A stretch of 64,000 bases of DNA from Patescibacteria group bacterium (GCA_049319825.1 JBMORT010000002.1:271230-335229), one strand, 5' to 3'. Counted from the first letter of the stretch, positions 56,301 through 62,733 are shown. Numbers and translations: made by a program. Notes: generated from the sequence alone by a model not told the origin.

Positions 56301-56912
56301 ATGAAACACTTGTTTTTGGCTCTCGTGGTGCTCAGTCTTTTCTCCAACTGCGATGAGGAGGATTTCGCGCCCGGGGTCACCATTCCCTGCGAATGGGACA
56401 TGGACTGCCCGTCGGACTCGTACTGCGATCAGTACTATTTCTGCGTCTGGCCCGAGGAGTACATCGTCGTGGAGGGTCAGCCGCAGCCTCAGACCGAAGT
56501 CATCGAAGAGGTCGTCTACGTGGACTGCGTCGACGACTGGGACTGCGACGTCGGCGAATACTGCTACCGGGACTTTTGTTACCGCGACGCCGAGTGCCTC
56601 GACGACCTGGACTGCGGCGCTTATGAAGACTGCGAAGGCGGCGAGTGCGTCGCGGTCGTCGAGTGCCTGCGCGACGAGCACTGCTACAGCGACGAGTACT
56701 GCGGCCAGGACGGGTTCTGCTACCAGAACGCGGATCAGTGCCAAAACAGCTACGACTGTCCGGAAAACACGGTCTGCGAGCGCGGCCGGTGCGTCGTGCC
56801 TTACGCGACGTACGCCTGCTGGACCAATCTCGACTGTCCGCCGGGCTTCAATGTCTGCGTGGACATCGTCTGTCCGACCGAAGAAGAGTGCCCGGGAATC
56901 TGCGCGCCCTGA
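56301..56912 (+). CDS. Cys-rich repeat lipoprotein. About 62% GC, a compositional outlier.
   Basis: Lipobox LVVLSLFSNCDEED. Six-plus units of DCxxDxxCxxxxxC(Y/V) such as CEWDMDCPSDSYCDQYYFC, CVDDWDCDVGEYCYRDFCY and CLRDEHCYSDEYCGQDGFCY. GAC/TGC/GTC codon bias unlike the neighbouring genes. Confidence 0.6.
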   Translation: MKHLFLALVVLSLFSNCDEEDFAPGVTIPCEWDMDCPSDSYCDQYYFCVWPEEYIVVEGQPQPQTEVIEEVVYVDCVDDWDCDVGEYCYRDFCYRDAECLDDLDCGAYEDCEGGECVAVVECLRDEHCYSDEYCGQDGFCYQNADQCQNSYDCPENTVCERGRCVVPYATYACWTNLDCPPGFNVCVDIVCPTEEECPGICAP

Positions 56913-58606: not shown

Positions 58607-59245
58607 TTATAATATTTCACTGACTTTTTCCCAGATTTGATTTTGAATGTTTTCAATCGTGTCTTCAGCGTTTATTACTGTCCAGTTCGCTTCGGTTTTT
58701 GCCAGTGATAAATATCCCTGTCTGACTTTTTCATGGAATTCAATCTTTTCCGCGTCAAAGCGATCATCTTTTAAGTTGTTCCGATCTCGGCCGTTTTCCA
58801 CTCTGGCCAGTCCGATTTTAGGATCAATATCCAGCAGGATGGTTAAATCCGGATTGAGTCCGCCAGTGGCGAAGCTGTTTATTTGCTTGACTTTTTCCAG
58901 AGCGAAAAGACCTCTGCCAAAATGCTGATAGGCGAATGATGACCCTTGAAAGCGATCGCAGACGATAATAGTGCCTTTTTCCATTTCCGGCCCGACCACC
59001 TGCTTGACATGCTGAGCTCTGGCGGCCAGAAATAAAAATAATTCGGTTTCCGGTACCATTGCTTTATTGGCCGGATCTTTTAGCATTTCTCTGATTTTTT
59101 CCGCGATTGGGCAGTTGGCGCCGCCAGGCTCGCGGGTTGTTAAAACGTGATAGCCCGCAGCCGTAAGTTTTTGTTCTAAAAATTTGATTTGAGTGGTTTT
59201 ACCCGTGCCTTCGCCGCCTTCAAAGACAATGAATTTTCCAATCAT
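58607..59245 (-). CDS. tmk: Thymidylate kinase
   Basis: MIGKFIVFEGGEGTGKTTQ P-loop. DRF motif VCDRFQGSSFAYQ. Start trimmed to Met43 of the track ORF (58607..59371). Confidence 0.85.
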   Translation of the reverse strand: MIGKFIVFEGGEGTGKTTQIKFLEQKLTAAGYHVLTTREPGGANCPIAEKIREMLKDPANKAMVPETELFLFLAARAQHVKQVVGPEMEKGTIIVCDRFQGSSFAYQHFGRGLFALEKVKQINSFATGGLNPDLTILLDIDPKIGLARVENGRDRNNLKDDRFDAEKIEFHEKVRQGYLSLAKTEANWTVINAEDTIENIQNQIWEKVSEIL

Positions 59246-59388
59246 ATGGAAGTTATTTAGTATTATTGATATTTTATCACATTTCGTGGCCGAGTAGAAT
59301 AATTGACAATCATGAAAAAATCTGATAAAACTTAAATGTTGCCTCACCGGGGCAAGCGCAGTGAACCGCACTTTAGCAGGGGGAAAAA

Positions 59389-59808
59389 GTGCTGAATATT
59401 TTAGTCATCGGTTATGAAAGAAAAAATGCGGGCCGCATTGGATTGTGGTGTCAAGAAAATTTGAATTCAACCAACGTGGCATATGTTGATGAGCGCGAAT
59501 TGCGTGATCAGTTTGATGACCATGGGGTTACCCTGCCAGCCGGCGCTGATCTGGTGATTCTGGCCGAATTCAGCCGGGCGCATCGTTTTCTTACGCCATT
59601 GCTGCTTGCCGTGCACGCCGCGGCCATCAGGCAGCATAAAAAAATGTTGGTAATCACGGTCAACTCTAAGCTGACTGAAGCAAAGCCACTGCGTTTTCGG
59701 GATGGGTTTTGGCACCTGTGTCTCCCCCCCCAGGCGCTGATTTGGGGGGAAAGGATCACCGACGCGGTTGATGAAATCTTCCAGGTATCAGCGGCTTCGG
59801 TCGCCTAG
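59389..59808 (+). CDS. Hypothetical protein, opposite strand within the nucleotide-metabolism cluster. Contains C8 and G6 homopolymer tracts.
   Basis: ORF only. C8 at 59724-59731 and G6 at 59744-59749. Confidence 0.35.
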   Translation: MLNILVIGYERKNAGRIGLWCQENLNSTNVAYVDERELRDQFDDHGVTLPAGADLVILAEFSRAHRFLTPLLLAVHAAAIRQHKKMLVITVNSKLTEAKPLRFRDGFWHLCLPPQALIWGERITDAVDEIFQVSAASVA

Positions 59809-59864
59809 CGAGGATTGAAGAGCCAGATCATGTCGGCTCTTTTTTATTTGTCCCCGGGCGCGGG

Positions 59865-60305
59865 TTATAATCCGGTCGATCCGAAACCGCCTCGAGAAGT
59901 TCCGGCTATTTGGTCAGCTTCCTCGAATTCAACTTTTTCAATCGGCATTATTAAGGCTTGACACAGCCTGTCTCCGCGCTCAATTTTGACTGGTTTATTC
60001 GTAATATTATAGAGGCTTAAATTTATTTCATCATCAGGACCGCAATAATCTTGATCAACCACGCCGATATTGTTTGAGAGCGTCAGTCCCTTCTTAACGG
60101 CCAGGCTGGAGCGATCCGCGATGATCAGCGCGAATCCCTCGGGGACTTCGACAATCAAATTTGTCGGCAGTTTTTCGATGGACCGGGGCATTATTTCCTT
60201 ATCGATTCGGCTGTATAAATCAAAAGCGACCGACCCCGGGGTTTGATATTGCGGTATGGGCAGGTCTTTTTCAATTCGTTTGATTTTTATTTTCATACTT
60301 TTCAA
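59865..60305 (-). CDS. dut: dUTP diphosphatase (dUTPase)
   Basis: Motifs GSVAFDLY, RSSLAVKKGLTLSNNIGVVDQDYCG and SRGGFGSTG. Confidence 0.9.
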   Translation of the reverse strand: MKSMKIKIKRIEKDLPIPQYQTPGSVAFDLYSRIDKEIMPRSIEKLPTNLIVEVPEGFALIIADRSSLAVKKGLTLSNNIGVVDQDYCGPDDEINLSLYNITNKPVKIERGDRLCQALIMPIEKVEFEEADQIAGTSRGGFGSTGL

Positions 60306-60843
60306 CTAATTGATCAAGCCTGGAGTAAAGATCATCGTGAGTGCCATTATTGTCAATTACTTCGGTGGCTGCGGCCGCGATGACCGCGATGGTCTTTTCA
60401 GTTTCTTTCTCATGGTCTTTTTTAAAGTCTTTAAAAGTTTTTACCTGATCATCGGTATTTTCCGAACGATCGACGATTCGTTTATATCTTGTATCCATGT
60501 CGGCGAAAATGTTGATCAGCACGAAATTGGGAATGTTTTTTAGATAAATGATGTCTTCCGGTCGGCGAATGCCATCCACGCAAATTATCGGAGCGTTGTC
60601 GTCTTCGACTTCTTCGGCAATCACTTTGGCGAAAAGATCCTGGCCGAACTTTTGTCTCAAAAGAGTCGATATGCTCTGAAGATTTTCTCTGGTTTGTTCC
60701 AGGTATAATCGATCAAGGACATCTCGCAGTATTGTTGAATAGCGATGGTTGCCGGCGCCGTATTTGTTTATCAGATAATCGCAGGCGGTACCCTTGCCGC
60801 TGGCGATCTCGCCGACAAATCCGAAAATAATTTTATTGGGCAT
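60271..60843 (-). CDS. P-loop nucleotide kinase family protein (dNMP/cytidylate/dephospho-CoA-kinase-like fold). Exact substrate uncertain.
   Basis: Walker A FGFVGEIASGKGTACDYL. 190 aa. Overlaps dut by 35 nt. Embedded in the dTMP cluster. Confidence 0.5.
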   Translation of the reverse strand: MPNKIIFGFVGEIASGKGTACDYLINKYGAGNHRYSTILRDVLDRLYLEQTRENLQSISTLLRQKFGQDLFAKVIAEEVEDDNAPIICVDGIRRPEDIIYLKNIPNFVLINIFADMDTRYKRIVDRSENTDDQVKTFKDFKKDHEKETEKTIAVIAAAATEVIDNNGTHDDLYSRLDQLVEKYENKNQTN

Positions 60844-60846
60844 ATG

Positions 60847-62733
60847 TTATTTTTGAGTAATCGTCTGCGTGCCGCGCCTGATATCCCAATCGCTTTGCTC
60901 GAGATCCGAGTGGAGCTTGAGGGCGGGAAATCTTTCCCGGAGCGCGTGATGCATTTGATGAGCGATTTTTCTTAAGGTCGGATGAACCGGCTTGCCGGAT
61001 CTTAATTCGACGACATAAACGGTCGCCGGCAGGCCGTAGGCCACGCGGCAGGGGACATTGAATCCCAATGAAATGTAATATTGTTTGATTTCTTCGGCCG
61101 CGTTTAAAGCGGTAATGCGAATTTTTTGCTCCGCGATCAATTGCTTGGCTTTTTCCCGAATATTATCCGGCAATTGGTCCAGATACCATGCGTTGAAGCC
61201 TTTGTCTGTCGTTAGCAGCGGCATTCGGCAGACGCCGTTTCGGTGCCGCTGAATGTCGCGAAAAGATCCGTAGTCCAGGTCGAAATCGAACTGCACCAGG
61301 CCCAGTTCGGAAAGAAAGTGCGGCAGATTGGTTTTCAGCGGCCGCGAGCTGATAATATCGGAGTATTTGCTAAGCTCCACCGCGTTAATGGACGTTTGAC
61401 AAGAAAATTCGGGGCTGACGGCTGATCGGTAATAATAATATTTTGCGTTGGTGTATTGCCTGAATTTTTCCTGATCATCATACAGATTATGCGAGAAGCT
61501 GTTGGCATATTTTTCTTTAAGCGTCTTATGGATTTTTTCCGCGATTTCCCTGACTTCGGGCAGGGGATTGTGCCGGAGCAAAGCGATTTTATCCCAAGCT
61601 TGGCGCAGATTGGTATGCCAGCTAAGCTGAGTGGTGATGCCGGCGGGTAAAAAGCCGCGCATGATGTCAAAGGTGCGGGCCTTGACCGCGTTTTCGTAAA
61701 CAGTTTCATTTTCCTCAGGTTTTTTGGGATAGTTTTTCTTGATATGTTCGCTGACCGCCGGCTGGCTGGAGACGTAAAAATCCATCCATTTGGAAATAAT
61801 CAGTTTCGATTCGTCAGAATTGATCGGATCAACAATCGCTTGTTTGGACATGTCAACATAGCGGGTGCTGGTTTCTTGTCCATTATATAAAGGCCAGTCC
61901 TGTATCGCTTTATCGGCAAGAATGCTTATTTTTTCAATGAATAAAGTTGTCGAGCCGCAATCGGCGATACTCTGATGGCCGTAGCCCACATAATAGCGCT
62001 CCATGAATTTGCCTGACCCGGTTTCTTCCACTTTTTTCACGTGTTCGGTAACGCTTTGCGGGCTTCTCGAATACAGTGCCTGCAGCATGGCCGTGTCTTC
62101 TGGCGCGTATTGATCGTATAAATAAACCTGAGCCAGCTGATTGTTTGCGGGCTGCGCTTTTTCGTTCGATTCAATTGGCTGGTTTTGCTTGGCGTCTGGC
62201 CTTTTATCTGGTTCATTATACAGATGAACCAAATCCAATTCTAAAATTTCAGGATTAGGCTTTTGATGTTTTTCGAATTTCACTCCGGCTTCCAGAAATA
62301 ATTTTACAAAGTCATTATCATTGTAATCACGATAAGTCACCACTTTTTTAATGCCCGCGTTGACGATCATCTTGGCGCAAATAATGCATGGCGTGTGAGT
62401 GCAGTAAAGTGTCGCGCCTTCAAGATTTATTCCGTGAAACGAAGCTTGAATAATGGCGTTTTGCTCGGCATGCACAGCCCGGCAGATTTGATGCTGAGTG
62501 CCCGATGGAATCTTTAATTCATCTCGCAGACAACCAAGCTCAAGGCAGTCTTTGGTGCCCGCTGGCGCGCCATTGTATCCGGTGGCCAGCACGTGTTTGT
62601 TTTTAACGGCGATAGCGCCCACGCGATGCCTTAGGCAAGTGGCTCTTTCCGCAACCAGCATCGCCAGTTTTAAAAAGTATTGGTCCCAGGATGGTCTTGA
62701 ATAAGGTTTTTGTTCGCTGTTTTTTTCGGCCAT
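60847..62733 (-). CDS. Fusion protein: N-terminal dCMP deaminase (zinc CDA fold) plus C-terminal tandem-duplicated ThyX-like (flavin-dependent thymidylate synthase) domain
   Basis: Deaminase motifs HAEQNAI...PCIICAKMIV. ThyX-like repeat 1 GHQSIADCGSTTLFIEKISILADKAIQDWPLYNGQETSTRY (S-x-RY retained, RHR replaced). ARTFDIMRGFLPAGITTQLSWHTNLRQAWDKIALLR aligns with ThyX R..LP...T..W..N.R....FL.LR. Repeat 2 carries FRDIQRHRNG (RHR motif). Confidence 0.6.
   Translation of the reverse strand: MAEKNSEQKPYSRPSWDQYFLKLAMLVAERATCLRHRVGAIAVKNKHVLATGYNGAPAGTKDCLELGCLRDELKIPSGTQHQICRAVHAEQNAIIQASFHGINLEGATLYCTHTPCIICAKMIVNAGIKKVVTYRDYNDNDFVKLFLEAGVKFEKHQKPNPEILELDLVHLYNEPDKRPDAKQNQPIESNEKAQPANNQLAQVYLYDQYAPEDTAMLQALYSRSPQSVTEHVKKVEETGSGKFMERYYVGYGHQSIADCGSTTLFIEKISILADKAIQDWPLYNGQETSTRYVDMSKQAIVDPINSDESKLIISKWMDFYVSSQPAVSEHIKKNYPKKPEENETVYENAVKARTFDIMRGFLPAGITTQLSWHTNLRQAWDKIALLRHNPLPEVREIAEKIHKTLKEKYANSFSHNLYDDQEKFRQYTNAKYYYYRSAVSPEFSCQTSINAVELSKYSDIISSRPLKTNLPHFLSELGLVQFDFDLDYGSFRDIQRHRNGVCRMPLLTTDKGFNAWYLDQLPDNIREKAKQLIAEQKIRITALNAAEEIKQYYISLGFNVPCRVAYGLPATVYVVELRSGKPVHPTLRKIAHQMHHALRERFPALKLHSDLEQSDWDIRRGTQTITQK

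Follow-up and report, generated by a model that had tools for sequence, protein, structure and literature searches.

Can one polypeptide carry both the deaminase that supplies deoxyuridine monophosphate (dUMP) and a flavin-dependent thymidylate synthase, ThyX, whose active site is divided between two repeats? The question is raised by positions 58,607 to 62,733 of a 64,000-nucleotide (nt) stretch of DNA from a Patescibacteria group bacterium (GCA_049319825.1, JBMORT010000002.1:271230-335229), which is analysed here at its full length and referred to as the window. The gene in question encodes a 628-amino acid (aa) protein that is probably a bifunctional enzyme of deoxythymidine monophosphate (dTMP) synthesis, in which a deoxycytidine monophosphate (dCMP) deaminase is fused to a split-site tandem ThyX within a thymidylate module. 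The parts of the fusion are as follows, with residues numbered on the 628-aa protein.

60847-62733, minus strand: fusion gene, an uninterrupted 628-aa open reading frame (ORF) for dCMP deaminase, linker, ThyX N-half and ThyX C-half
62335-62691, minus strand: dCMP deaminase domain, residues 15-133 (Pfam PF00383 dCMP_cyt_deam_1, 1e-26, 93.1 bits against a cutoff of 25)
62464-62472, minus strand: H88-A-E90 motif, zinc/catalytic, intact
62377-62391, minus strand: P115-C-I-I-C119 motif, the PCxxC zinc motif, intact
62137-62256, minus strand: inter-domain linker, residues 160-199 (~40 aa), polar, with no family match
61489-62136, minus strand: ThyX N-half, residues 200-415, with Pfam Thy1 at residues 217-408 (2e-17, 64.1 bits against a gathering score of 24.8)
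60850-61488, minus strand: predicted ThyX C-half, residues 416-628, assigned from its predicted fold and the Thy1 matches of relatives

ThyX has been studied for its unusual mechanism and as a target for antibiotics, and, to our knowledge, everything known about the enzyme derives from homotetramers. The fusion is already labelled 'deoxycytidylate deaminase/thymidylate synthase ThyX' by JGI, and proteins of the family stand in databases under ThyX names. A literature search, made with limited access, found no description of a tandem, split-site ThyX or of ThyX in Patescibacteria, and a double-length ThyX seems never to have been described as such. The chlamydial ThyX, probably about 529 aa in length and possibly a long form, may be a characterised relative. 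Chlamydial ThyX was too divergent for the original 2002 ThyX phylogeny (PMC6171736).

Two ThyX folds with divided catalytic residues

The two halves of the ThyX region differ in how they are recognised. A profile of 72 family members matches Mycobacterium tuberculosis (Mtb) ThyX (3GWC) at 3.5e-8 across the whole fold, and also Corynebacterium ThyX, through the N-half only; the N-half aligns with canonical ThyX by hhalign at 96.5% probability. Residues 409-628 of the window protein have no Pfam match, a phmmer search of residues 200-628 as a single sequence and a search with the C-half profile both find nothing among PDB sequences, and BLASTP of repeat 1 against repeat 2 gives no match. Sequence alone is insufficient to prove a duplication. 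Among the C-halves of relatives, 21 of 39 match Pfam Thy1 (best 1.9e-6), and any other family is matched by at most one member.

Predicted structures point the same way as these relatives. AlphaFold2 (AF2), run on residues 190-628 with a diverse alignment, gives a model with a predicted local distance difference test score (pLDDT) of 95.6 and a predicted template modelling score (pTM) of 0.91, in which the order of secondary-structure elements is repeated twice. The top Foldseek matches of this tandem model in the PDB are all ThyX, each spanning ~220 columns, the length of one half; no solved chain covering both halves is found among the PDB matches (best TMq 0.37). The C-half modelled alone reaches a pLDDT of 92.7 and matches 144 PDB chains at E <= 1e-3, the best 50 of which are all ThyX or the ThyX-like methylase PolB. 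The tandem architecture is judged real, with its second fold resting on relatives and predicted structures. An earlier annotation made from the DNA alone (the sequence-only reading) had taken the C-terminal two-thirds of the protein for two ThyX folds, and this is borne out by AF2 and Foldseek, which find both halves ThyX-like, and by the Thy1 matches of relatives' C-halves. The Pfam search that it proposed recovered PF00383 and Thy1 (217-408) and left the second repeat unmatched.

Residue equivalences were taken from a HMMER alignment of the N-half to Mtb ThyX and from hhalign alignments of deep half-profiles to canonical ThyX, the latter set comprising Mtb and C. glutamicum fragments plus a Thermotoga maritima (Tm) sequence.

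61969-61977, minus strand: N-half H253 and S255, equivalent to Tm H53 and T55 (Mtb H69 and S71)
61891-61899, minus strand: N-half D279-W280-P281, at the R-H-R position
61858-61869, minus strand: N-half S289-T-R291-Y292; E287, S289, R291 and Y292 are equivalent to Tm E86, S88, R90 and Y91
61657-61659, minus strand: N-half R359, equivalent to Tm R147
61603-61605, minus strand: N-half R377, equivalent to Tm R165 (Mtb R190)
61255-61260, minus strand: C-half R492 and D493, equivalent to Tm R74 and Q75
61240-61248, minus strand: C-half R496-H497-R498, equivalent to R-H-R
C-half Q551: equivalent to Tm R147, Arg lost
C-half P569: equivalent to Tm R165, Arg lost
61000-61002, minus strand: C-half R578, equivalent to Tm R174 (Mtb R199)
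60982-60984, minus strand: C-half H584, a possible equivalent of H178

The alignments by hhalign place the C-half RHR on the canonical RHR and R578 on R174. The N-half has no conserved Arg at the R174 position; in the C-half, the loop that bears H53/T55 is deleted and nothing resembles S-x-R-Y. A contiguous RHR-x7-S-x-R-Y is absent from either half, and the motif is complete only as the sum of both. The sequence-only reading had placed QETSTRY in repeat 1 and QRHRNG in repeat 2, which is where S289-T-R291-Y292 and R496-H497-R498 are located, and a complete RHR...S.RY set in a single repeat, which would have told against it, was looked for without success, the set being divided between the halves. 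Its 'WPLY' at the RHR position was one residue out of register, as HMMER and hhalign both place D279-W280-P281 there.

Conservation was followed in three sets: 72 diverse members, which share 35-70% identity with the window protein, 78 species-representative genomes, and 62 viral homologs, each unique. Repeating the homolog search with a diverse profile broadened the family only slightly. In the 72-member alignment, columns are on average 35% identical. Against this background, H253, S255, S289 and R291 of the N-half are present in all 72 members and Y292, E287 and R359 in 70 each, and R492, D493, R496, R498, R578 and H584 of the C-half are likewise found in 72 of 72, with H497 in 70. The degenerate positions are variable or are fixed as D/x/P, Q or P. 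An identical complementary pattern is seen in the 78 genomes and the 62 viral homologs. To judge from these alignments, the split of the catalytic residues is real, family-wide and far beyond chance, and the complementary degeneration of the two repeats that had been noted from the window alone extends to all 72 + 78 + 62 sequences.

Proposed assembly of the tandem enzyme

In M. tuberculosis ThyX, active site 1 is built by three subunits (PMC6514825): (i) subunit A, which contributes the RHR motif (contacting the phosphates and ribityl of flavin adenine dinucleotide (FAD), flavin N1/O2 and dUMP) and R199, (ii) subunit B, which contributes S71 and R190, touching the FAD phosphates, and (iii) subunit C, which contributes Q103, S105, R107 and the lid Y108 (PMC6514825). 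Ser88/Gln89 and Gln75/Arg182 sit on different monomers (PMC3498832), and H53 is held by Y91 and N85 (PMC11940539). In the tandem protein, the residues of role A survive solely in the C-half, and those of roles B and C solely in the N-half. Since the canonical site needs three subunits, two repeats of one chain cannot complete a site alone. Thus, of the pseudo-heterodimeric single-chain ThyX proposed by the sequence-only reading, the complementary folds stand, but one chain is insufficient.

The N-terminal zinc deaminase is predicted to convert dCMP to dUMP, and the C-terminal 430 residues would form a flavin-dependent thymidylate synthase, a tandem of two diverged ThyX folds that would divide the roles shared by identical subunits in the canonical homotetramer. 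The C-half would provide the subunit-A elements, namely RHR and the Arg equivalent to Tm R174/Mtb R199 (uracil). The N-half would provide both the subunit-C elements (the substrate loop E-x-S-x-R-Y) and the subunit-B elements (its counterparts of H53 and T55/S71 and, with looser conservation, of R165/R190). Two chains are proposed to pair about one true two-fold axis to give a pseudo-tetramer with two complete FAD/dUMP sites, each formed by the C-half of one chain and both N-halves, and the remaining two symmetry-related sites would be dead. The fusion gene would be co-transcribed with an NMP (nucleoside monophosphate)-kinase-like gene and dut, with tmk just downstream, as a thymidylate module.

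The arrangement can be derived from a 222-symmetric tetramer, whose four sites are formed by subunits (A;B;C), (B;A;D), (C;D;A) and (D;C;B). If the C-halves occupy A and D, leaving B and C to the N-halves, all roles are filled at sites 1 and 4 and none at sites 2 and 3; in either of the alternative placements, role B or role C is missing from each site. We infer a homodimer of chains that binds two FAD and has two active sites, to each of which both chains contribute. Both enzymatic activities are likewise predictions, as would be any gain from the fusion other than expression at a fixed 1:1 ratio.

Compared with canonical homotetrameric ThyX (T. maritima TM0449, M. tuberculosis Rv2754c and PBCV-1 A674R; PF02511), the fold matches both halves, the pathway context is the same, and the FAD- and dUMP-contacting residues are all represented once the two halves are summed. 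Unlike canonical ThyX, the tandem chain comprises two folds and is predicted to have two active sites per four folds instead of four. If the proposal is true, a natural single-chain ThyX would (i) confirm independently which residues act from which subunit, (ii) offer a ready asymmetric scaffold for mutating single roles, which is impossible in a homotetramer, and (iii) test whether four sites are needed. The relevance of tandem ThyX is moderate and lies in ThyX enzymology and annotation; it is not a new kind of system.

Distribution, operon context and recurrent fusion

Tandem ThyX is the usual ThyX of many Patescibacteria and many large phages. An exhaustive search of representatives finds 1,965 clusters (50% identity) at E <= 0.001 and 512 at E <= 1e-30, the best 150 of the 1,965 being mostly 430-500 aa in length. 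In a word-indexed search, over 4,300 clusters (90% identity) are found, most of them ~430 aa in length, which NCBI and JGI name FAD-dependent thymidylate synthase or ThyX; their sources are Patescibacteria, Falkowbacteria and Moranbacteria among them. When one genome per species is scanned, the tandem form is detected in at least 586 species, and about 100 IMG/VR viral contigs also encode it; the tandem ThyX is not an oddity of the window locus. For annotation, thousands of database entries show just one detected Thy1 domain, and the public record of the genome studied here loses the deaminase.

The ~100 IMG/VR contigs range in G+C from 0.24 to 0.69, and their flanks are without the Patescibacteria operon; on these grounds, an origin of the top contigs as misbinned Patescibacteria DNA was rejected, most being genuinely different contexts. 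Two divergent representatives are located in phage-like contigs. The proteins of Vibrio jumbo phages (vB_VmeM-Yong, BONAISHI) share 30% identity over 100% of the query, and full-length structural matches in BFVD reach TMq 0.73-0.92 over 456-477 columns, including a 491-aa 'thymidylate synthase' of Microcystis phage Ma-LMM01. The viral records are as follows.

L085-L164, MK308674-MK308677 and MH595538: IMG/VR contigs and cultured Vibrio jumbo phages

These long proteins of large phages (Ma-LMM01, Vibrio phages) share the tandem architecture of the window protein, with the split residues conserved in the 62 viral homologs, but have neither the deaminase fusion nor an operon of the Patescibacteria type. 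Phage copies are annotated as hypothetical, thymidylate synthase or 'thymidilate synthase-like', and a DCD-like gene lies near tandem ThyX in about a dozen IMG/VR contigs.

In the window, the minus-strand order is fusion, P-loop kinase, dut, tmk and then gatB.

60271-60843, minus strand: NMP-kinase-like P-loop gene, 190 aa, beginning 3 nt past the stop codon of the fusion
59865-60305, minus strand: dut, deoxyuridine triphosphate (dUTP) diphosphatase (Pfam dUTPase 1.4e-23; NCBIfam NF001862 124.9 bits against a cutoff of 103)
58607-59245, minus strand: tmk, dTMP kinase (TIGR00041 188.5 bits against a cutoff of 83)

The dut gene overlaps the 3' end of the kinase gene. The tmk gene, 212 aa in the Logan record, is likely to start with the M at 59245 rather than the GTG at 59371. 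The kinase gene product is predicted to adopt an NMP-kinase fold, with matches to Pfam AAA_17 (2e-8), PHROG 139 dNMP kinase (3e-19) and, in the PDB, the UPF0200/AdkA-like 3H0K (1.5e-8) plus adenylate kinases. ORF calls and Pfam/NCBIfam matches agree with the order of fusion, P-loop kinase, dut and tmk first read from the DNA. The single dTMP cluster that was seen there is supported as far as its dut and tmk neighbours go, but a 619-nt gap with an antisense ORF parts dut from tmk.

Related loci were compared at 80 species-level loci, where genes were counted within 2.5 kb and on the same strand as the long ThyX.

tmk: 64 of 80 loci
NMP-kinase-like gene: 61 of 80 loci
dut: 46 of 80 loci
tmk and dut as one ORF: 23 of 80 loci
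any deaminase, adjacent or fused: 58 of 80 loci
separate dCMP deaminase: 47 of 80 loci
separate deoxycytidine triphosphate (dCTP) deaminase-like gene: 8 of 80 loci
dCMP deaminase fused to ThyX: 4 of 80 loci

A Moranbacteria genome has dCMP deaminase, kinase, ThyX, tmk and dut in that order, all as separate genes. At one locus, L003, the order of ThyX fusion, kinase, tmk-dut, gatB and miaA is syntenic with that of the window. Single ORFs for tmk-dut are found in L003 (5001-8900 region; a 447-aa Tmk-Dut protein), L004, L006, L010 and other loci.

The N-terminal domain of the window fusion appears to be a genuine dCMP deaminase of the ComEB/DCTD type. Its closest PDB entries are all dCMP deaminases (S. 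mutans 2HVV 8e-29, 4P9C 2e-24, T4 1VQ2 1e-21 and human DCTD 2W4L), and the H-A-E and P-C-x-x-C motifs are kept in an alignment of fused homologs. The dCMP deaminase that the sequence-only reading saw at the N-terminus is upheld by these neighbours and by the PF00383 match, whereas its label 'dcd' is misplaced, as Dcd is a dCTP deaminase. Stand-alone dCMP deaminases (2HVV, 4P9C, T4 Cd 1VQ2 and the B. subtilis ComEB family) are homologous across the whole domain and share its zinc/catalytic motifs. Unlike these enzymes, the window domain is covalently linked to the next enzyme of the pathway and falls below the ComEB equivalog cutoff. The linker differs in length and sequence among the aligned fused homologs; such variability, over ~40 residues, suggests a flexible tether.

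The fused form recurs as a minority variant, as a survey first suggested from the window now finds: besides the 4 of 80 loci, it is present in 11 of the 120 closest clusters, and fifteen further fused homologs are known. The deaminase domain of the window protein is 83% identical to that of one of these (P0002) and 42-57% identical to those of the other 14, whose deaminase domains share 70-83% identity with operon deaminases that stand alone; for the window domain, the best such stand-alone enzyme from a Patescibacteria operon is 48% identical. At L003 5001-6983 (P0056), the N-terminal domain of the long ThyX is dCTP-deaminase-like (PF22769) and not a dCMP deaminase. Because the window deaminase is distant from the 14 others, which resemble stand-alone operon deaminases, and a dCTP-deaminase-like fusion exists as well, the fusion has had at least two origins with dCMP deaminases and one with a dCTP deaminase.

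Recurrent fusion argues for selection on coupling or fixed stoichiometry; the channelling that the sequence-only reading suggested is supported neither by recurrence nor by the variable linker. Substrate channelling is classically discussed for the bifunctional dihydrofolate reductase-thymidylate synthase (DHFR-TS) of protozoa and plants. That enzyme likewise fuses consecutive enzymes around thymidylate synthesis, but its synthase is ThyA, not ThyX, and its partner is the downstream folate reductase rather than the upstream supplier of dUMP. Together, the repeated fusions to dCMP/dCTP deaminases and the frequent tmk-dut fusions speak of a consolidation of the thymidylate pathway in very small genomes. 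A broader proposal, given an even chance here, is that the long ThyX proteins are an unrecognised ancient class of single-chain pseudo-heterodimeric enzymes, common to Patescibacteria and diverse large phages, in which roles were split after duplication and the dimer has half the usual sites. Such enzymes would have repeatedly captured a dUMP- or dUTP-producing deaminase at the N-terminus, possibly handing dUMP to the synthase directly.

Competing explanations and minor features of the locus

Several points weigh against a bifunctional enzyme with a split-site tandem ThyX. The N-half and C-half profiles align only weakly by hhalign (E 0.002-0.006), the window C-half is without a ThyX signal at the sequence level (Pfam, phmmer, profile against the PDB), and the TIGR02170 score lies far below the equivalog cutoff (27.7 bits against 87.9). 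Of the mapped residues, R377, the Arg of role B, is less conserved than the others (61 of 72 in the diverse set, 43 of 62 in viruses), and the pairing of H584 with H178 is uncertain, being two positions off in the hhalign alignment. The deaminase domain scores 122 bits (2e-35) with ComEB TIGR02571, under the equivalog cutoff of 219. The assembly and the count of two sites are deductions from symmetry, and the literature search found no activity, cofactor or oligomer data for any tandem-ThyX member. Within the 64 kb of the window, no other thymidylate synthase is found, though the remainder of the genome might encode one.

Among the alternatives, the tandem protein might be another flavin-dependent modifier of pyrimidines, such as a PolB-like UMP (uridine monophosphate)/dUMP methylase or a hydroxymethylase, with the halved site reflecting a changed chemistry or substrate. 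The fold matches of the C-half include PolB (4P5A), members of the family are frequent in large phages and possible giant viruses, whose DNA is often modified, and the low TIGR02170 score fits this explanation as well. It is nevertheless improbable, as the neighbours of the Patescibacteria gene in most species are tmk, dut and dCMP deaminase, the surroundings that a housekeeping dTMP synthase would be expected to have, the known dUMP- and FAD-contacting residues are all retained across the two halves, and no other thymidylate synthase is found in the window. A similarly small likelihood attaches to the C-half being a structural scaffold or regulatory pseudo-domain, with catalysis by some other assembly (a tetramer of chains with eight folds, or the N-halves alone). 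The C-half is indeed much more diverged than the N-half; however, RHR and a conserved R174 equivalent, which bind FAD and uracil in every ThyX studied, are always missing from the N-half, and a non-catalytic scaffold would hardly be expected to keep the RHR/R174-type residues of the C-half invariant in 212 sequences.

The remaining two alternatives concern the deaminase. That deaminase and kinase together deplete nucleotides against phages, in the manner of the anti-phage dCTP deaminases, instead of serving biosynthesis, is suggested by matches to the two halves of PADLOC PDLC02373 (kinase 3.8e-14, deaminase domain 1.1e-27, both partial) and of NF041025. The kinase and deaminase domains of the anti-phage dCTP deaminase are homologous to the window kinase gene and the deaminase domain of the fusion, but they form one chain with the kinase N-terminal and the deaminase C-terminal, whereas the window has two genes in the reverse order, unfused to each other, with the deaminase joined to ThyX. 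The two window parts score 77.7 and 32.5 bits with NF041025, far below its cutoff of 400, and the arrangement is kept with thyX, tmk and dut in most of the 80 species, beside gatB, miaA and ribosomal protein genes, which is the behaviour of a core genome and not of a defence island. A defence system is thus very unlikely, and this explanation was rejected on the scores, the different arrangement and the conserved core biosynthetic operon. It is extremely unlikely that the fusion is an artefact in which two neighbouring genes were joined through misassembly or a frameshift. The NCBI protein from the same genome (P0001, 'FAD-dependent thymidylate synthase') is a 413-aa product that starts at the internal M216, so that the deaminase part is absent from that annotation, and the deaminase is separate in most relatives. 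The window ORF is continuous, though, an independent Logan assembly yields the identical 628-aa gene as a single coding sequence with PF00383 and PF02511, and the architecture recurs, with other linkers, in the fifteen other fused proteins, which come from different samples; on these three counts the artefact was rejected. A dCMP deaminase fused to a split-site tandem ThyX remains the preferred explanation.

The kinase gene and the deaminase domain may be housekeeping relatives of the anti-phage dCTP deaminase. The dut-tmk gap (59246-59864, 619 nt) interrupts the operon and has no Rfam match. It holds a 139-aa ORF on the plus strand (59389-59808), antisense to and convergent with dut, which has no Pfam or NCBIfam match and is not called in the Logan record. 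A hairpin follows the dut stop codon; promoter and terminator scans gave nothing above chance. Across the 64-kb window, there are no tRNA genes and no Rfam families at the gathering score. Elsewhere in the window, 56301-56912 on the plus strand encodes a 203-aa protein rich in Cys, Asp, Glu and Tyr, with a hydrophobic N-terminus and a weak DUF7107 match in the Logan record; the many overlapping spurious ORFs around it stem from locally raised G+C.

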